Shown here: in pieces, positions 2,667 to 11,133 of the stretch
Layout: each line of letters begins with the position of its first letter
Position numbering within the stretch: the stretch's first letter is position 1
IMG/VR virus record: IMGVR_UViG_2703719347_000005
Coordinates: 1 to 26,614 of that record
From: a virus
Taxonomy: Duplodnaviria; Heunggongvirae; Uroviricota; Caudoviricetes
DNA: 26,614 nucleotides
Strand: one strand, 5' to 3'
Translations under genes and position numbers: made by a program
The notes under the pieces: model-generated
What the model was told of the DNA's origin: nothing
Databases searched by the model: none
The model's input: the letters and a program-made list of their open reading frames with translations, nothing else

Positions 2667-3932
2667 CTACTTAACCTGTAACAGGTCGGAGTATCTTGTA
2701 GTATAGCAAGGTGAAAGCATTTCCCGCTTCATCTGCCAGGCCGTTTGGATCCCCTGCCCTGCAAAATACAGCGTTCCCCTTCCGTCTTTCGCATTGAGAT
2801 GGTCGAGTACTTCCATCAGTTTCTCGCTATTCCGCCGTGGCACGTTATCATCAAACAAGTTTAGCTGGGCCACCCCCTGACTGTAGAAATCCCCCAGCAT
2901 CACTCCGGCTTTCTGGTAGCGATACCCGTCTCGCCAGATTGCATCGAGACATTCCGTCGCCGCTGTGATTATGTCCCGACTGTCCTGGGTCGGGGTCAAT
3001 AGTTTCACTGATGCACTATTGCCGTAGTACGGCTCATTCAGAGCAAATGGGCTGGTTTTGACGAATGCAGAGATAAAGCGGCAGTACTGATGCTCACCAC
3101 GGAGTTTCTCCGCGGCACGGGATGCGTATAAGCATATCGCCTGGCGCATCTCTTCGTAGGTGGAAATCCGCTGCCCAAAGCTGCGACTACAGACAATCTC
3201 CTGCTTTACCGGCGCGAACTCCTCAAGACCGAGACATGGCTCTCCGCGTAGCTCCCGCACGGTTCGCTCCAGTACCACATTAAAATGCTTCCGGATAAAA
3301 CGGATATCGGTATCCGCCAGTTGCAGTACAGTTTTAATCCCCATGGCCTCCAGTTTTTTACTGATGCGGCGCCCGACGCCCCAGACCTCATCCACCGGAA
3401 GCAAAGCCATCAACTTCCTCTGTCTTTCCAGGTTCGACAGATCCACCACGCCTCCGGTCTGCCGCTGCCACTGTTTCGCGGCGTGATTGGCCAGCTTCGC
3501 CAGGGTTTTAGTCTGGGCTATGCCGACGCCGACCGTTAGGTGTGTCCTGCGCAGAACCGTCTCGCGAATTTCCCTGCCAAAGTCGGTAAGGTCGCGACAA
3601 TTCCGAACTCCTGTCAGGTCGCAAAATGCCTCATCAATACTGTAAATTTCGCAGCGTGGAGAGAGTTCCTCCAGCGTTGTCATCACTCGGTTGGACATAT
3701 CGGCATAAAGCTCATAGTTGCTGCTAAACGCGATAATACCGTGCCGGCGAAACACGTCCTTTTGCTTGAAATAAGGCTCACCCATTTTGACGAAGGGCTT
3801 CGCTTCTGGCGAGCGGGCGATCACACAGCCGTCGTTGTTTGACAGAACGACCACCGGACGCCCTTTCAGGTCAGGACGAAATACGGTCTCGCACGATGCA
3901 TAAAATGAATTCACATCACAAAGCGCAAACAT
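2667..3932 (-). CDS. umuC: Translesion DNA polymerase V catalytic subunit UmuC (Y-family polymerase)
   Basis: Starts MFALCDVNSFYASCE with the SIDEAFCDLTG catalytic motif, ~421 aa. ATG is at 3930-3932, one nt after the umuD stop. The ORF-track 5' extension to 3992 is rejected. Confidence 0.9.
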   Translation of the reverse strand: MFALCDVNSFYASCETVFRPDLKGRPVVVLSNNDGCVIARSPEAKPFVKMGEPYFKQKDVFRRHGIIAFSSNYELYADMSNRVMTTLEELSPRCEIYSIDEAFCDLTGVRNCRDLTDFGREIRETVLRRTHLTVGVGIAQTKTLAKLANHAAKQWQRQTGGVVDLSNLERQRKLMALLPVDEVWGVGRRISKKLEAMGIKTVLQLADTDIRFIRKHFNVVLERTVRELRGEPCLGLEEFAPVKQEIVCSRSFGQRISTYEEMRQAICLYASRAAEKLRGEHQYCRFISAFVKTSPFALNEPYYGNSASVKLLTPTQDSRDIITAATECLDAIWRDGYRYQKAGVMLGDFYSQGVAQLNLFDDNVPRRNSEKLMEVLDHLNAKDGRGTLYFAGQGIQTAWQMKREMLSPCYTTRYSDLLQVK

Positions 3933-3933
3933 C

Positions 3934-4353
3934 TTAGCCAGCTGATTTAATGATGTACGTAACCACCCCGAACACGTCGAGAGTGTCCTCACTACCGACG
4001 ACTATTGGCGAATATGCAGGGTTCATTGGGTTAAGCTGAACCCGCGGATGCAGTTGCAGCTTCTTAACGGTGAATTCCCCATCCACAGCAGCAATAACGA
4101 TATCGCCATGAACTGCTGTTCTTGAGCTATCCACGACCAGAAGATCACCTTCCCCTATGCCTGCGTCTTTCATGCTGTCGCCGGCGGCTTTGACAAAATA
4201 CGTCGCACTTGGGTGGTTAACGAGCAACTCGTTCAGATCAATACGTTGCTCAACATAATCCTGCGCTGGACTAGGAAAGCCGCACTGCACAAGGTCACTG
4301 TACAACGGGAGCAGCATGATCTGGCGTAACTCAACGGGCGTGTAGAACTGCAT
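3934..4353 (-). CDS. umuD: UmuD, LexA-like self-cleaving accessory subunit of polymerase V
   Basis: 139 aa from ATG 4351-4353 ([13 protein letters not shown]...). Conserved Cys-Gly cleavage site (LVQCGFPSP), Ser (GDSMKD) and Lys (TVKKLQL) present. Confidence 0.9.
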
Positions 4354-4372
4354 AATAAACTCGCTCACAAAA

Positions 4373-4567: not shown

Positions 4568-4693
4568 ATGTCACAGACGGACTTGCTGATTGTTGTTTTT
4601 ACGCTGGGCATTTTAGCCTTTGGCTATTCCATATGGTTCATTTCGAACAGAATACTCTGCTCAATATTTCATAGACTTACAAAGAATATATGA
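4568..4693 (+). CDS. Small hydrophobic ORF (41 aa; MSQTDLLIVVFTLGILAFGYSIWFISNRILCSIFHRLTKNI), putative small membrane protein
   Basis: ATG-initiated ORF below the ORF-track cutoff with one predicted transmembrane helix. Divergent from umuD and on the same strand as the terminator at 4900-4934. Weak RBS. Confidence 0.25.
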   Translation: MSQTDLLIVVFTLGILAFGYSIWFISNRILCSIFHRLTKNI

Positions 4694-4816
4694 ATTGGGA
4701 TGGTATAGACCAAAATTCATGGTCCTTGCTCCTCGACGTCGGAAGGTACTTACAGATCATCTTCGCTCTTAACCTATCACATCGGCACCTACTCCATGAT
4801 GTAACAGCTCAGACCA

Positions 4817-4934
4817 GAAATATCTGGAAGCTTTAGGCATCTTCTTGGAAGATAGACGAGCGCAAAGACGCACACAGCAATGATGTTATGTAGTATTTTC
4901 CCCTTGAGTGTGCCTGCTCAAGGGGATTTTTTAT
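4817..4934 (+). repeat. Direct repeat copy 1 (~118 bp), homologous to 7965-8079, ending in an intrinsic terminator
   Basis: Shared GAAATATCTGGAA, a 22-bp identical core GCGCAAAGACGCACACAGCAAT (4860-4881 and 8008-8029), and a terminator hairpin with conserved loop. Confidence 0.6.
4900..4934 (+). terminator. Rho-independent terminator (plus strand) overlapping the 3' end of the invertase gene
   Basis: CCCCTTGAG-tgtgcctg-CTCAAGGGG followed by ATTTTTTAT. The minus-strand version has no U-tract, so it is not the invertase terminator. Confidence 0.6.
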
Positions 4935-5510: not shown

Positions 5511-5539
5511 ATTGTAAAAAGCCGCGGCCATTCGCTCAA
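5511..5539 (-). promoter_or_regulatory. Putative sigma70 promoter of the invertase gene, -35 overlapping crossover site L
   Basis: On the minus strand: -35 TTGAGC (5539-5534), 17-bp spacer, -10 TACAAT (5516-5511). The -35 hexamer lies inside the left half of the 26-bp site. Confidence 0.3.
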
Positions 5540-5556
5540 ACCCTCGTTTGGGCGAA
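5531..5556. other. gix/hix-like 26-bp recombination site L
   Basis: TTCGCTCAAACC-CT-CGTTTGGGCGAA: two 12-bp half-sites (TTC....AAACC) around a 2-bp core, as in gix/hix/cix. Exact reverse complement occurs at 11080-11105. Confidence 0.65.
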
Positions 5557-5923
5557 GCCTCTTTTTGGAGCAAAAAACATGGCCGAACTTAACCCGCCAC
5601 TGGGCACGACGACGCCGGAAATATTCATGGACAACGTTAAGCGCGCTGACGAGCTGGTTAACGGTCCGGCCGGAACGGTTGACGACCGCGGCGGTGAACC
5701 ACTCGATACCTGGCGCCAGATGATGGCGAAAAACGATGAGGTCAGGCAGAACCTGATCCCGCTCAGTAAGCAATACCAGACGCTGGCAGCGGCGCAGGCG
5801 GATATCGCGAATATTCCGGTGGGGTCGACCACGTATTACCGTAGCCCGGATGACAACGCGTTAGCTGTAGAAGTGATCAATAACGCCGGTACGCTGCAGC
5901 CTACCGGGCGGAAAATGCCATCT
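5531..5923. repeat. Left arm of ~390-bp inverted repeat (site + RBS + first ~115 codons of fibre A)
   Basis: First 48 bp are 100% identical to revcomp of 11058-11105; the next ~345 nt are roughly 85-90% identical by eye to the fibre B 5' end. Confidence 0.85.
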
Positions 5924-7918
5924 TATTCTTCGCTACGCGGGGCGAACATTCTGTTTGATGCTCTGAATGAATATTCAGCAAATGATCCTAAATTCGGTGC
6001 GTGGGACTGGTATCGCGGAGCAGTGATCACCTTCAGCACTACTGATGCCAATATTTCGTTACCGACTCCAGTGGCACAGTATTCCGGCGTATGGTCTGCA
6101 GATAAATATTATGACCTTGCCCGCCTGCCTGTAAGGGTTGGTGATAAGTTAACCTTTTCCGTGCTGGCGTGGTTCCAGGATGCCGGTGCTATGTTCCATA
6201 TTTTCTGGATGTCCACCGCTGGCGCTGTTATTTCGTCTAAATCACAGCTTGCTCTGGCCGCAGGTATAAATACGCCGGTTATCACAGATGTCATTCCATC
6301 CGGCGCATCCTACGTCAGGATCCGGGTTGAAAATACTACGGCAGGGATATTTAAGGTCGGTGCTTATGCTGCTGCGTTGGGGGCTATTCAGCCTGATTTT
6401 GTTCGCGCCACGCCGGATAAAACTTATCTGTCAGCCGTCATATCATCCGGTATTTCGGGGTTAACATCACGCGTCGATGCGCTCCAGGGAGCTATCTCTG
6501 TTGGTTATGCTTATGCAGCTGCCTGGCAAGTCGGGAAATTTATCAACCCAACTACAGGGGCCATCACTGATAACTCTGCGCTGAACTGCGCAATCATTCC
6601 GCATTCCGACGGGGATGGCTGGCTGGTGACAGCCCTTGTGACAGGATCGGCGACTGCTCTGGCCGTGTACATGAACAGCGCCGGGATGGTATTGGGTGTT
6701 GAAGGGCGGGGAACGGCAACCCCGCAGCAGTATACTAATTATCGTCTTAACGTTCCTGCCGGGACAACACAGATCGGTATAACGGGTCGTAATTCTGCGG
6801 AAATTGCTGTTAAAAAACTTGCTGTCGTTGAGACGGCCAAAGTACTGGCATCGATCGATTCTCTGGATGTCAGGGTACAAACAATAGAGGACTCTCTTGT
6901 TTATGATTTTATTAAACACGACGTCACGATTACCTCAGGAGCATATATAAACCGTGCTGATGGCAGTGTGGTGGCAAATGCTGCATTTGACTGTGCAATT
7001 TTTAATTACACAGCAGGAGACCGCTGGAAAGTCACAGCGAGGGTTAACGGCAGTGGAGTTTCGCTCGCGGTGTATATGAACAGTGCCGGGACGGTTATCG
7101 GCACCGAAGGGAACGGTACTACAGAATCGGTGGACTACACCGATTACGAGCTAACACCTCCTTCCGGCACCGCCAAAATCGGGATCACCACCCGTATAGC
7201 CGTCCCCATTATTGCCAAAAAATATGTAGTCGTTCCCGGTGGTAGCACGGTCAGTCCGTGGTCTGGAAAAGTCATCGATGTGATGGGTGACAGCAACGTT
7301 GCTTATAACAAATGGCAACCTCTTGTCGCGGCAGAACTGGGCTGCACTTTTCTGAATCACGGGGTCGGTGGTTCGAAAATAGCCAAACCGGATAGCTCCT
7401 CAACGCAAATCAGCATGTGCGACGATGTGCGAATCAATGCTCTGGATACATCGGCGGCGGCGTGGATTTGCGGTCCGTGGGCAACAAACGACTGGGCGCA
7501 AAATATTCCGATTGGAAGTATCACCGACTCAGTGAATACAACCGTTTACGGCGCGCTGAACATCATCGCTCAGAAACTGCGGGCGCGGGCCCCAACAAAA
7601 CCTATCCTGTGGGCCACGCCGTTCAATGGGGACTATGATTCTCCACGTTCAGCGGCATGGGTTGACGGTGAAACAAATGGCTATGGGCGGGTTTCTGACT
7701 ATGCAGCGGCCATACGCGCCGTGGCGTTGCGATATGGATTCCCCCTAATAGACCTTAACGCTGACTGTGGCTGGACAAAATTCAATAGCACTAGTTTTTT
7801 ATTAACCGAGGGGGATACAAATCCGTCCCGCATCCACCTCAATGCGGACGCGGGGCCTGTGCGTATTTCCTCACTGATAACCGATCGGCTTACTGCCCTA
7901 CAGAAACTGGTGGGCTAG
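5579..7918 (+). CDS. Alternative tail fibre A (779 aa): shared N-terminal anchor, three repeated ~100-aa modules, C-terminal GDSL/SGNH-like esterase domain
   Basis: N-terminus MAELNPPLGTTTPEIF... shared with fibre B for ~115 aa. C-terminal region carries MGDSNVA, HGVGGSK, WATNDW and a late His (SRIH), reading like SGNH hydrolase blocks. Currently antiparallel to the tail operon. Confidence 0.7.
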   Translation: MAELNPPLGTTTPEIFMDNVKRADELVNGPAGTVDDRGGEPLDTWRQMMAKNDEVRQNLIPLSKQYQTLAAAQADIANIPVGSTTYYRSPDDNALAVEVINNAGTLQPTGRKMPSYSSLRGANILFDALNEYSANDPKFGAWDWYRGAVITFSTTDANISLPTPVAQYSGVWSADKYYDLARLPVRVGDKLTFSVLAWFQDAGAMFHIFWMSTAGAVISSKSQLALAAGINTPVITDVIPSGASYVRIRVENTTAGIFKVGAYAAALGAIQPDFVRATPDKTYLSAVISSGISGLTSRVDALQGAISVGYAYAAAWQVGKFINPTTGAITDNSALNCAIIPHSDGDGWLVTALVTGSATALAVYMNSAGMVLGVEGRGTATPQQYTNYRLNVPAGTTQIGITGRNSAEIAVKKLAVVETAKVLASIDSLDVRVQTIEDSLVYDFIKHDVTITSGAYINRADGSVVANAAFDCAIFNYTAGDRWKVTARVNGSGVSLAVYMNSAGTVIGTEGNGTTESVDYTDYELTPPSGTAKIGITTRIAVPIIAKKYVVVPGGSTVSPWSGKVIDVMGDSNVAYNKWQPLVAAELGCTFLNHGVGGSKIAKPDSSSTQISMCDDVRINALDTSAAAWICGPWATNDWAQNIPIGSITDSVNTTVYGALNIIAQKLRARAPTKPILWATPFNGDYDSPRSAAWVDGETNGYGRVSDYAAAIRAVALRYGFPLIDLNADCGWTKFNSTSFLLTEGDTNPSRIHLNADAGPVRISSLITDRLTALQKLVG

Positions 7919-7964
7919 TTAACAGTGCTTATCGCGTAGTAGTGTTTCTAAAATGCTGTAATAA

Positions 7965-8079
7965 GAAATATCTGGAAATGTTTTGAATTATCCAGGAGTA
8001 TATCAACGCGCAAAGACGCACACAGCAATAATGTCATTCATCGCTTTTCCCCCGGCGTGCCTCCGGGGGGATTTTTTAG
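7965..8079 (+). repeat. Direct repeat copy 2 (homolog of 4817-4934) downstream of fibre A
   Basis: See copy 1. Stem sequence differs from copy 1 with compensatory changes (CCCCTTGAG/CTCAAGGGG versus CCCCCGG/CCGGGGG) while the loop (GTGCCT) is conserved. Confidence 0.6.
8049..8079 (+). terminator. Rho-independent terminator downstream of fibre A
   Basis: CCCCCGG-cgtgcct-CCGGGGGG followed by ATTTTTTAG on the plus strand. Confidence 0.6.
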
Positions 8080-8173
8080 TCCTTTATGACGTCGTCTTGT
8101 CCCGTCCTCAGGGAAGCTATAGTGGTCTTATTTCACGTGGTAACTGAAACTGAATACAGTACGAGTCAGCTTA

Positions 8174-8890
8174 TTACGCGATTGATAAAATCCCTTCATA
8201 GCTCTGAGTGACGAGGTCAACCATATCCATTTTTTCAGCCTGAGAGAGTATTCCGCCCGCCCACACCCCTGTCATTGCAATATCCACAGCGCCTAAAAAA
8301 TCTGACGTGATATAGGAGTAGCCAGCATAAATCGACTTATTCGGAACAGGGATTGCGCGGGCGGTAACAGCGACCTGTTCAGTCGATAACAGCTCACTGT
8401 TCGTCATTTTATGAAGCTGAACCATAGAGTTATTCACATCGAGGAAAACCAGATGGAATTTACTGGTGTCCAGTGGAGTCGCGAGGGTGGCGGTTGCTGT
8501 CCCGCTTGACCGCCCCACAATCCCCCTGATTTGAGGAATGGCCGGTTCAAAAACAAACGTATCCCCCTGCGGTTGTACAGCAGAGCCGAGATAGTTACCC
8601 ATGCCCAGCGCTCTGGTAGTGCTTTTAGGCCGGAGTAACACCATCATGGTTTTAACCGGGTTATCCGTGACTTTCAGATCATAACCCCCCGCACCAACAC
8701 CACCCGTAAACCAGTACGTGTTGATGACAGGTGCCCCCACTATGGTTGGCTCTTCCCCAAAAATAGCCCCAAAGTTCTGGCTGCCAAATGTGGCAATGCT
8801 CGCGATAGACGGCTGCGGATAACTCGAACCAATAATACAGTCATCATCCCAGACGGCATCAACATTAATAGATAATCCCTGATTAGACAT
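8174..8890 (-). CDS. Hypothetical protein (238 aa) co-transcribed downstream of fibre B; possible fibre accessory or assembly protein
   Basis: Start ATG 8888-8890 (MSNQGLSINVD...), 7 nt after the fibre B stop, with GAGG SD overlapping that stop. The ORF-track 5' extension to 8989 overlaps fibre B and is rejected. No family recognised. Confidence 0.5.
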   Translation of the reverse strand: MSNQGLSINVDAVWDDDCIIGSSYPQPSIASIATFGSQNFGAIFGEEPTIVGAPVINTYWFTGGVGAGGYDLKVTDNPVKTMMVLLRPKSTTRALGMGNYLGSAVQPQGDTFVFEPAIPQIRGIVGRSSGTATATLATPLDTSKFHLVFLDVNNSMVQLHKMTNSELLSTEQVAVTARAIPVPNKSIYAGYSYITSDFLGAVDIAMTGVWAGGILSQAEKMDMVDLVTQSYEGILSIA

Positions 8891-8897
8891 AAGTACC

Positions 8898-11057
8898 TCA
8901 CAACGTGATTTCAAACATGACGCAATAGTTATCCATACGGATAACCTCGCTATTAAGGGTAAAACTGATAATGTCGCCCTGGCTGTCACGCAGACAACCG
9001 CGCGGCCCGGTCAGGCGACCCGGTGACTGGCCGGTGGTGCCGCCGTGAAAGGCATACTGAAGAATGGCCCCGGCAGGGATATCCGCTGCCGTTGAGACAG
9101 TCACCGCGTCATAACGGATATTGAGGCTGGTCAGCGGGATAATCGCACGTGTGTCAGGGTGCAGTAGCCGGAAACCATAATTACCCGGATCAGAAACAAT
9201 GCTGGTATCAAAGCTCAGCCGACCCACCGGATTCAGCCACACCGTAGCGGCGCGGCCCTGGCGTTGATGACTAACTGGCATCAGTGGTTTTGCCGCTTTG
9301 CCGTCAACCAGCGCCCGCTTTTCCATCACGGAAATATAAAGCCCCTGAATATAGGAACTTCTGGCGGTGAGGTGTGCGCCATCCGTGTAATCGTGAATGT
9401 ACATCGGGTTCGTGAGATAGACATTTTCGCGTGTCTGCGCCAGCTCCAGCAGCGCCATCGGAATGGTGGGATAGGCTGTGTTCGGCGTCCGGTTTATCCA
9501 GCTGCTGAACTGATAAACAAAAATCGGCACATGGACTTCTTCGCCGCACACAGCTGAGGCGTGGGCATCGATCCGCTGTTGCATGGTGTCGAAAATAGCC
9601 TGATAGTCTGCTTTGGTGGTGCCTTTCGTCTGGTCTGCTTCGCCCTGCATCCAGTACATCGCCACAGGCCGGTAGGTTTTCCCGAGCTCCTGAGCGCGGG
9701 CGTAACCATAACTGATATCATCGAAAACTCGCTGAATGTACTTTCCGGGATACGCCGCCAGCACATCAATGGGTTGACCGCCCTCCGCCGGAACAGAACC
9801 CAGAATGATCAGATCATCCGGGTTAAAGCCATAGTTCTCGGCAATCATCAGTTCGTACCAGCCGCGAATGCTGGCCCCCATTGGGGTTTCCCATGCCTGG
9901 CCGTTATCGGTGTTTTTATACGTCTCGACGTAGGGAACCAGCTGAGCATGGTTTTCTGCCGAAGTGCCGGAGCCATCCTGCGCCCGTGCCCCACCGATAA
10001 AACGCAATGCGGTATACAGCGCGGCTATCGTAATCAGGGCCTGAGTATTCACGCCAGCGGCAAGCGATTGTCCGTAACCGATTTTATGGGCAATATCCGG
10101 CAGGCGTGAGTAAATGGACTGATTAAAATAGCGCAGAAATTCAGGGGAAATAATCGCTTTAACTTCCAGAGTTTCGGCTTTCAGCGATTTTACCTCTCCA
10201 TGATTCGCTTCAATTTTCCCCGCAGCAAATGCCCCGTTTTTTTTGATACCCACAGCCGGACGATTTAACGTATCACGCCACGCCATAACGAAATCGCGGA
10301 ATGTCGCAGTAGAAATGCTGGCGTTGGCTGGTAACCCTAAGATACTGGCAATCGTAAGATTGTTGATCTCAGCCTTCCCTGATTTCAGTACCCCTTTTTT
10401 ATTAATGGCAAAACAAAGCCGTTTAAGGGTGTCATAAACTGAAACAGCGTTACCGTCAGCCACTAATGATAAAGCAGAATTCCCGATATTCAGACGTGAT
10501 GACGAGATGATCGACGAAATAAATTCATCCGCTGAGAGCTTTTTTAATTCTGCTTTATTCGCCTTAATCCACCCGGCAAGCAACCGGCCCGCCTCATCCA
10601 GCCCTACCGAATAATTTTTTCGTTCATCCATAAAGGCAAGAGACATACCCGCTGGCGCATTCTGGCTGAACGTTGCTCTGATCAAATCAGTCATGATATT
10701 GACCAGCTCCTGAGATGGCATTTTCCGCCCGGTAGGTTGCAGCGTCCCGCCGTTATTCATGTACTCGTCCGCCAGCGCCCAGACGTCCTGGCTGCGAACA
10801 TAGGTCGTGGAGCCAACGGGGATATTCGCGATATCTGCCTGCGCTGCCGCCTCATTCATATACTGCTTGCTGAGTGGGATCAGGTTCTGCCTGACCTCAT
10901 CGTTTTTCGCCATCATCTGGCGCCAGGTATCGAGCGGTTCACCTGCGCGGTCGTTAATCGTTCCGGCCGGACCGTTCACCAGTTCGTCAGCGCGCTTGAC
11001 GTTATCCAGGAATATTTCAGGCGTCGTCGTTCCCAAAGGCGGGTTAAGTTCGGCCAT
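8898..11057 (-). CDS. Alternative tail fibre B (719 aa): shared N-terminal anchor, SASA-like acetylesterase domain, extra C-terminal domain
   Basis: N-terminal ~115 aa shared with fibre A. Residues ~325-585 carry YGQSLAAG, WMQGEAD and DGAHL, consistent with SASA/DUF303-type SGNH esterases. Colinear with the tail operon, so this is the presumably expressed fibre. Confidence 0.7.
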   Translation of the reverse strand: MAELNPPLGTTTPEIFLDNVKRADELVNGPAGTINDRAGEPLDTWRQMMAKNDEVRQNLIPLSKQYMNEAAAQADIANIPVGSTTYVRSQDVWALADEYMNNGGTLQPTGRKMPSQELVNIMTDLIRATFSQNAPAGMSLAFMDERKNYSVGLDEAGRLLAGWIKANKAELKKLSADEFISSIISSSRLNIGNSALSLVADGNAVSVYDTLKRLCFAINKKGVLKSGKAEINNLTIASILGLPANASISTATFRDFVMAWRDTLNRPAVGIKKNGAFAAGKIEANHGEVKSLKAETLEVKAIISPEFLRYFNQSIYSRLPDIAHKIGYGQSLAAGVNTQALITIAALYTALRFIGGARAQDGSGTSAENHAQLVPYVETYKNTDNGQAWETPMGASIRGWYELMIAENYGFNPDDLIILGSVPAEGGQPIDVLAAYPGKYIQRVFDDISYGYARAQELGKTYRPVAMYWMQGEADQTKGTTKADYQAIFDTMQQRIDAHASAVCGEEVHVPIFVYQFSSWINRTPNTAYPTIPMALLELAQTRENVYLTNPMYIHDYTDGAHLTARSSYIQGLYISVMEKRALVDGKAAKPLMPVSHQRQGRAATVWLNPVGRLSFDTSIVSDPGNYGFRLLHPDTRAIIPLTSLNIRYDAVTVSTAADIPAGAILQYAFHGGTTGQSPGRLTGPRGCLRDSQGDIISFTLNSEVIRMDNYCVMFEITL

Positions 11058-11105
11058 GTTTTTTGCTCCAAAAAGAGGCTTCGCCCAAACGAGGGTTTGA
11101 GCGAA
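10713..11105. repeat. Right arm of ~390-bp inverted repeat (fibre B 5' end + RBS + site R)
   Basis: Reverse complement matches 5531-5923; outermost 48 bp are identical. Confidence 0.85.
11080..11105. other. gix/hix-like 26-bp recombination site R (inverted relative to site L)
   Basis: TTCGCCCAAACG-AG-GGTTTGAGCGAA on the plus strand, the exact reverse complement of site L. Confidence 0.65.
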
Positions 11106-11133
11106 AGAAAAGTTGAAAGGGATTTTTTTGGTA

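Follow-up and report, generated by a model that had tools for sequence, protein, structure and literature searches.

A predicted lectin-fold protein encoded directly behind an esterase tail fibre in the invertible segment of an Escherichia coli prophage

In the invertible segments of phages Mu (G segment, Gin) and P1 (C segment, Cin), each tail fibre variant has its own assembly gene, U or U', and the constant N-terminal part of S is encoded outside the segment. A comparable arrangement is described here for an Escherichia coli prophage. The sequence analysed, referred to as the window, is the whole of a 26,614-nucleotide (nt) stretch assigned to Caudoviricetes (IMG/VR record IMGVR_UViG_2703719347_000005, positions 1 to 26,614); it holds the tail module of an E. 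coli prophage, in which an invertible segment of 5.6 kb (5531-11105) has an invertase gene beside it. The segment holds two complete convergent fibre genes, referred to as fibre A and fibre B, and fibre B is followed by a gene for a 238-amino-acid (aa) protein, referred to as the partner, which is the main subject of this report. As in the Mu and P1 segments, there is a serine invertase, there are two convergent host-range sets and 26-bp sites, and both orientations occur in nature. Unlike those segments, the segment of the window contains whole fibre genes with the anchor duplicated as an inverted repeat, and only one of its arms has a second gene, which is not U-like.

The partner can also be compared with other genes found behind fibre genes. 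Like members of Caudo_TAP (PF02413; Mu U, P2 G, and lambda Tfa), it is encoded by a small gene directly after a fibre gene, is tied to the distal part of the fibre, and is co-exchanged with it; unlike them, it has no sequence match to that family, and its predicted fold is a concanavalin-A-like jelly roll and not the Tfa fold. Like the gp38 adhesins (T2, T6, and S16-type), it is encoded separately, behind the fibre gene, and might bind the receptor from a seat on the fibre, which is the mechanism favoured below, but its sequence is unrelated and lacks the glycine-rich motifs, and its position at the fibre tip is a proposal. Both fibres of the window end in SGNH-superfamily esterase domains, as do gp63.1 of E. 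coli phage G7C and the SGNH fibres of Klebsiella prophages. The Klebsiella prophage fibres, expressed alone, are active acetyl esterases (PMC13123978); the text of that paper does not contain the words 'lectin', 'LamG', 'invertase', or 'inversion'.

Two further comparisons concern loci with a fibre and partner pair. In Acinetobacter phages fLi-Aba02, fLi-Aba03, and fEg-Aba01, an 'acetylxylan esterase-like' protein (Gp21/Gp19) and a 'lectin-like' protein (Gp22/Gp20) have been reported (PMC7354433, PMC11058221), with Gene3D/SUPERFAMILY matches given for fLi-Aba02 gp22 (PMC11058221), and in the fEg-Aba01 deposit the two proteins already bear the names 'acetylxylan esterase-like' and, for the second, 'Concanavalin A-like lectin'. 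The Acinetobacter pair represents the same module as the pair in the window, the fibre being 28% identical to the fibre B body and the downstream protein falling in the same BLAST-linked superfamily; it differs in belonging to a distant sub-family, in coming from non-invertible phages, and in having been described in silico and in passing. Klebsiella phage KPP5665-2 (L048; MF695815.1, 12660-22866, GP19-GP23) shares with the window a series of tail genes of 811, 159, 160, 126, and 1022 aa and a cassette built on the same plan, namely a J-like gene, a 1220-aa 'O-glycosyl hydrolase' fibre alone, a convergent 650-aa esterase fibre with a 252-aa partner, and an invertase. Its fibre bodies differ from those of the window and its partner belongs to a second sub-family. 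The deposited names for this phage are uninformative (the fibre is a 'flagellar biosynthesis protein', the gpJ-like protein a 'kinase', and the minor tail proteins a transporter or regulator), and its invertible host-range switch appears to have gone unnoted in its annotation. On invertible fibre cassettes of Klebsiella or E. coli and on a lectin partner, the literature search found only passing in-silico remarks, and it found no paper that treats the esterase fibre and lectin-like pair as a conserved module or tests the pair; a paper on Webervirus receptor-binding proteins deals with other fibre types.

Sequence comparison indicates that the esterase fibre body and its partner of approximately 240 aa are a two-gene module, which is exchanged as a unit onto different N-terminal anchors. 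A partner homologue was located 7 to 14 nt downstream of a fibre B-like body in all 12 of the closer loci, whatever the N-terminal anchor, and the C-terminal 590 to 670 residues of the fibre were homologous to fibre B in every partner-family locus examined. These loci included Webervirus TSK1, Mydovirus KpS11, P2-like Klebsiella prophages (in which the pair lies between a gpI-like gene and a tail-collar fibre), a Mu-like contig, 47-kb siphovirus contigs with a lambda-Stf-type N-terminus, and a myovirus contig (L012). On the myovirus contig, the adjacent conventional fibre has a Caudo_TAP gene of its own, from which it follows that the partner gene is the counterpart for the esterase fibre. The identities of fibre and partner to the window pair co-varied (fibre/partner, 99/99.6, 97/99.6, 97/99, 87/87, 85/82, 80/82, 67/57, 41/37, 40/36, 40/35, 43/25, and 42/32%). 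For a P2-like prophage, the partner was 57% and the esterase domain 83-95% identical to those of the window, the divergence of the partner being similar to that of the shaft. Within fibre B, residues 52-719 are homologous to the partner-linked fibres of other phages, and the motif GPRGCLRDSQGD is invariant. Fibre B matched phrog_4201 ('tail fiber protein', expect value (E) 2e-114) and, weakly and below the curated cut-off, Pfam SASA (E 0.0055), a model that its relatives in TSK1 and fEg-Aba01 match better.

A more distant sample comprised 13 phage genomes, with hosts in Acinetobacter, Vibrio, Burkholderia, Serratia, and Klebsiella, that were matched by the esterase body of fibre B at 23-29% identity. 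All 13 have an open reading frame (ORF) of 190 to 258 aa directly after the fibre gene, and the products of 11 joined the window partner in one BLAST single-linkage cluster by way of bridging members. The exceptions were Ruegeria phage 45A6, in which the gene that follows is of the DUF847 type, and Serratia phage ChuuTotoro, which was ambiguous. One bridging member, gp26 of ST147-VIM1phi7.1, scored 49 bits against the family-1 profile and 15 bits against the family-2 profile, and alignment of the two partner sub-families with hhalign gave an E value of 9e-5 and a probability of 59%. At the near end of the range, fibre B and partner were observed at 97-99.6% identity (L004/L005 and P0001) in prophages located at different chromosomal sites, and the near-identical protein cluster (P0001) is named after Klebsiella variicola, though the window is from E. 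coli. The sequences suggest a recent exchange of the module between Escherichia and Klebsiella.

The 238-aa ORF is, by its pattern of substitution, a real gene under strong purifying selection, with a ratio of nonsynonymous to synonymous substitution rates of 0.07-0.11 against three relatives at 80-87% identity. Full-length homologues were recovered down to approximately 22% identity in two independent searches. A longer version of the protein starting at a GTG codon (8989, 271 aa) was considered and is unsupported, because all homologues begin at the ATG position. The minus-strand junction reads ...ACG TTG TGA GGTACTT ATG TCT, with the stop codon of fibre B at 8900-8898 and the ATG of the partner at 8890-8888; the gap is 7 nt (8897-8891), and the GAGG of the Shine-Dalgarno sequence ends 5 nt before the ATG. 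Placement of the stop codon inside the Shine-Dalgarno sequence recurs in most of the relatives examined (TAAGAGG in TSK1, L015, and L017; TAAGGGG in KpS11; TGAGG in L012), and P2-like prophage L010 has a 14-nt gap without such overlap. A preliminary description of the window, made from the sequence, had noted translational coupling of the 238-aa ORF to fibre B across a 7-nt gap with the Shine-Dalgarno sequence over the stop, and direct reading of the junction bears this out. Its statement that fibre A is followed only by a terminator likewise holds, the 255 nt behind fibre A being non-coding, with a hairpin and T-run at 8047-8071; no ORF of at least 60 aa was found in this interval (7919-8173), in which short ORFs of 29 to 54 aa are present. 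The contrast that it drew with Mu and P1, which have a partner for each variant, is a fair one on established knowledge.

The partner gave no match in scans of Pfam, PHROG, NCBIfam, or PADLOC, and when the family alignment was used as a profile against the sequences in PDB, nothing was returned even at an E value of 10. The family is small, with 22 representatives at E of 0.001 or less among 1.84 billion proteins, each of them a stand-alone protein and not part of a larger one. Of the 22 aligned members, 14 matched phrog_4390 (function unknown; best E 1.7e-29), to which the window partner had no match at E of 0.1 or less, and a single member matched Laminin_G_3 weakly (E 0.009), a model that the window partner did not match. 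An AlphaFold2 model was built from the 22-sequence alignment, replacing a first run that had used 14 close homologues and reached a predicted local distance difference test score (pLDDT) of 58. The later model (pLDDT 85.9, predicted template modelling score 0.83) is a monomer consisting of a two-sheet beta-sandwich followed by a C-terminal helix. The top 50 Foldseek matches in PDB were all lectin-type jelly rolls at TM values of 0.5-0.6, among them the receptor-binding domains of botulinum and tetanus toxins, VIP36, CBM40, thrombospondin (TSPN) and LamG domains, galectins, and pentraxins; those in BFVD were phage 'Concanavalin A-like lectin/glucanase' proteins and a protein of phage CBB with the UniProt name 'Structural protein'. 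Foldseek results obtained with the poor first model agree with the later ones. The fold of the partner is confidently predicted from the model to be a concanavalin-A/LamG-like jelly roll.

Several polar residues (D76, K80, Y100, D110, R178, and W210) are conserved across the family and are compatible with a putative carbohydrate- or Ca2+-binding site. The N-terminal 28 residues have a conservation of 0.62, against 0.58 for the core, yet a low pLDDT, a pattern compatible with a segment that becomes ordered only on its binding partner. No transmembrane or hydrophobic segment, signal peptide, or PADLOC defence-family match was detected. Homology searches and structure prediction, the checks suggested in the preliminary description, brought up no protein of unrelated function and yielded the lectin-like fold. 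The fibre-B-specific accessory or adhesin envisaged there is well supported, as the partner occurs only after fibre B-like bodies in every locus of the family examined, its divergence tracks that of the fibre, and its fold is predicted to be lectin-like. The other possibility raised there, that fibre A may need no chaperone, is compatible with the data.

It is proposed, tentatively and at a probability that falls just short of an even chance, that the partner is a virion-borne, trans-encoded, glycan-binding subunit of lectin type belonging to the esterase fibre. Inversion to the B-on state would place fibre B and the partner behind the gpJ-like gene, and the partner would be made only in that state by translational coupling with fibre B. 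It would then dock on fibre B, possibly through the conserved N-terminal 28 residues that are unstructured in the monomer model, and remain in the virion, where it would bind the acetylated surface polysaccharide processed by the esterase domain; it might also aid folding of the fibre. Tails of siphovirus, P2-like, Mu-like, and Vequintavirinae type all carry the partner, and the esterase body is the one neighbour that does not change among them; the partner would therefore have to act on or with the esterase fibre and not the baseplate. A number of points weigh against this proposal. The presence of the partner in the virion, its binding of sugar, and its contact with fibre B are predictions from sequence and model, and the window partner itself reaches no Pfam or PHROG model. 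No fusion of partner and fibre, which would serve as a 'Rosetta stone' for physical contact, was found among the 1.84 billion representatives. The position of the gene fits a folding chaperone equally well. Finally, the lectin-like gene of phage fEg-Aba01 has naturally lost 69 codons in frame, and the adsorption rate and host range of this phage equal those of its intact siblings (PMC7354433); an intact lectin fold is accordingly non-essential in that phage under laboratory conditions.

The partner could instead be a dedicated, transient chaperone that folds or trimerises the esterase fibre body and is absent from the virion; it would then do what Mu U, P2 G, and lambda Tfa do, although its fold is unrelated to theirs. 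Its gene is located where chaperone genes classically lie, immediately behind the fibre gene and in translational coupling with it, and in P2-like prophages it occupies the gpG position; a separate Caudo_TAP gene never accompanies the esterase fibres, as one does the neighbouring conventional fibre of L012, and the partner is always a separate polypeptide, never fused to the fibre. On the other side, the predicted fold is a lectin-type jelly roll, which is not known among fibre chaperones, and the partner has no Caudo_TAP match. The full infectivity of the fEg-Aba01 deletion variant (PMC7354433) argues weakly against a requirement in folding or trimerisation, and in the P2-like prophage the faster divergence of the partner (57%) than of the esterase domain (83-95%) suits, again weakly, a specificity element. 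On balance, a transient chaperone is a serious contender that we regard as rather unlikely.

More improbable is that the partner serves as a second receptor-binding protein or short fibre in its own right, with its own attachment to the baseplate. The predicted lectin fold would fit receptor binding, and the SGNH protein and the concanavalin-A-like protein of fLi-Aba02 have been listed as two putative tail fibres (PMC11058221), but the partner is a single globular domain of approximately 240 aa with neither an anchor nor a coiled-coil region, and the siphovirus, P2-like, Mu-like, and Vequintavirinae tails on which it is found have no common baseplate docking site. Least probable of all, to the point of being barely credible, is a lysogen cargo (moron) gene, for instance one for surface modification or superinfection exclusion, that rides behind the fibre. 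The gene does lie near the prophage end, close to umuDC-like cargo, and carries the RefSeq name 'hypothetical protein'; on the other side, it is found, likewise coupled to the fibre gene, in Webervirus TSK1 and Mydovirus KpS11, its product has no signal peptide, membrane segment, or PADLOC match, and as cargo it would be silent in the A-on orientation. Phages of these two genera are usually considered strictly lytic.

The asymmetry of the cassette is ordinary: it reflects which modules have recombined into the two arms and is not special to the locus in the window, because sister cassettes pair the same arm of fibre B and partner, retained at 97-99% identity, with different opposite arms. The opposite arm is the 779-aa GDSL fibre alone in the window and a 1113-aa fibre alone in E. 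coli Ec-U1, and such partner-less arms are common in sister cassettes (779, 1113, and, in KPP5665-2, 1220 aa). In L003, and also in L004-L008, it consists of a 629-aa fibre and an overlapping gene for a 269-aa protein (8804-9613 in L003). The 269-aa protein was considered as a relative of the partner and rejected, no similarity being detected by BLAST or in two hhalign runs; it matched nothing in any library scanned, and its gene could represent another type of fibre partner without relation to the first. The GDSL-type fibre A of the window probably belongs to a different module that lacks such a gene, which would explain the asymmetry. Fibre A matched Pfam Lipase_GDSL_2 above the cut-off (E 2.4e-9) and also matched GDSL proteins in PDB; when phage records were searched for relatives of its body, the matches were all partial and uninformative. 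Upstream of the GDSL domain, residues of approximately 330 to 550 (6560-7230) form two tandem domains of approximately 100 aa with a repeated motif (ALAVYMNSAGMVLGVEGRGT and SLAVYMNSAGTVIGTEGNGT). These could be built-in carbohydrate-binding modules, which would make a trans partner unnecessary.

The switch exchanges whole fibre genes, each with its own ribosome-binding site and ATG, behind or away from the late operon, because the crossover falls either before the start of complete genes or no further into them than codon 8. Comparison of four junctions placed the crossover within a 68-nt stretch, identical in both arms, that runs from the 26-bp site to codon 8, and the megablast matches of inverted genomes begin or end exactly at 5531 and 11105. 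The 26-bp sites are hix/gix-like. A fibre A protein of 100% identity occurs in many E. coli assemblies with both orientations of the segment: among the matches listed, gpJ is followed by fibre A in L018, L021, L023, L025, L026, and L028 and by fibre B in L019, L020, L022, L024, and L027. The window, like the latter, is in the B-on orientation. No plus-strand promoter-like site was found upstream of the silent fibre gene, which is a weak test. Several short-read contigs, L006, L007, and L008 among them, span just the invertible segment (approximately 5.7 kb), which is what the 393-nt inverted repeat or a population of mixed orientation would produce.

Some non-coding features of the segment borders were also observed. 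The crossover site followed by GCCTCTTTTT (5531-5566 and 11069-11106) forms a hairpin resembling an intrinsic terminator between the gpJ-like gene and the fibre that faces it, and transcription from the late operon into the fibre gene might be attenuated by this hairpin. The crossover site also contains the -35 hexamer of a promoter-like site for the invertase (5539-5511, minus strand). A non-coding element of approximately 110 nt is present twice in direct orientation, over the 3' end of the invertase gene (4816-4926) and after fibre A (7964-8071); each copy reads AGAAATATCTGGAA...GCGCAAAGACGCACACAGCAAT and then continues into a GC-rich hairpin and T-run, the core is 74% identical between the copies with 22 nt exact, and an Rfam scan assigned it to no family.

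The coordinates of the cassette are collected in Table 1. Between 4.9 and 14.2 kb lies the distal part of a prophage tail operon of siphovirus type, encoded on the minus strand, in which the genes are ordered tape-measure protein (811 aa), 159, 160, and 126 aa, and the gpJ/TipJ-like protein (1022 aa). The gpJ-like gene is the last of the fixed late operon and reads into whichever fibre faces it. The RefSeq names of the three cassette genes are 'SGNH/GDSL hydrolase family protein', 'hypothetical protein', and 'hypothetical protein'. Beyond the invertase, prophage-end cargo is represented by umuD-like (S24 peptidase) and umuC-like (Y-family polymerase) genes (2667-4368, minus strand), and some sister genomes have an insertion of an ISL3 transposase between these genes and the invertase. 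A hydrophobic peptide, MSQTDLLIVVFTLGILAFGYSIWFISNRILCSIFHRLTKNI, is encoded by a 41-codon ORF (4568-4693, plus strand) that lies between the repeated 3' element and the umuD-like gene. The interval 4700-4755, which contains a 17-nt inverted match to the junction of fibre B and partner, was considered as a relic of another fibre end or partner start and was dismissed, tblastn returning nothing significant.

Table 1. Positions in the window of the genes and sites of the invertible fibre cassette
Feature	Position	Strand	Remarks
Serine DNA invertase, 189 aa	4918-5487	-	Pfam Resolvase, E 1.6e-49, and HTH_7; phrog_125 'DNA invertase', E 1.8e-85; directly outside the invertible segment
26-bp palindromic hix/gix-like site, TTCGCTCAAACC CT CGTTTGGGCGAA	5531-5556		Outer edge of left arm; likely crossover site
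Inverted repeat, left arm (48 nt upstream and fibre A codons 1-115)	5531-5923		85% complementary to 10713-11105
Fibre A, 779 aa	5579-7918	+	Same N-terminal anchor as fibre B; C-terminal GDSL-type SGNH hydrolase; no downstream gene
Terminator-like hairpin and T-run	8047-8071	+	Ends the fibre A transcription unit
Partner gene, 238 aa	8174-8890	-	RefSeq 'hypothetical protein', WP_042346226.1; predicted concanavalin-A/LamG-like jelly roll
Shine-Dalgarno GAGG of partner	8896-8899	-	Read from the sequence; overlaps the fibre B TGA (8898-8900)
Fibre B, 719 aa	8898-11057	-	N-terminal anchor of approximately 115 aa, shaft, C-terminal sialate-acetylesterase-like (SASA/SGNH) body
Inverted repeat, right arm (fibre B codons 1-115 and 48 nt upstream)	10713-11105		393 nt per arm
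Second copy of 26-bp site	11080-11105		Outer edge of right arm
gpJ/TipJ-like tail tip protein, 1022 aa	11134-14202	-	phrog_469; Pfam FNIII-A_GpJ and Phage-tail_3; RefSeq 'host specificity factor TipJ family'

More interesting than the asymmetry of the cassette is the widespread module of esterase fibre and lectin-fold partner. It is possible, although we would place the balance somewhat on the other side, that stand-alone proteins of concanavalin-A/LamG fold are an unrecognised class of obligate tail fibre partner, whether lectin subunit or lectin-fold chaperone, and form an ancient mobile module with SASA-type O-acetyl-esterase fibres. The module may extend over siphoviruses, P2-like and Mu-like phages, and Vequintavirinae of Escherichia, Klebsiella, Acinetobacter, Vibrio, Burkholderia, and Serratia. 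Acetyl-esterase fibres have recently been proposed as a main route of capsule recognition in temperate Klebsiella phages (PMC13123978), and esterase fibres are now expressed and engineered as single proteins; if the proposed class is real, those expressed alone would be incomplete receptor-binding proteins. The 'hypothetical' partner could be named in annotation as part of a receptor-binding module, and, if a lectin-fold partner always accompanies one large class of esterase fibres, host-range prediction, fibre swapping, and the preparation of recombinant 'esterase' reagents would need both genes.

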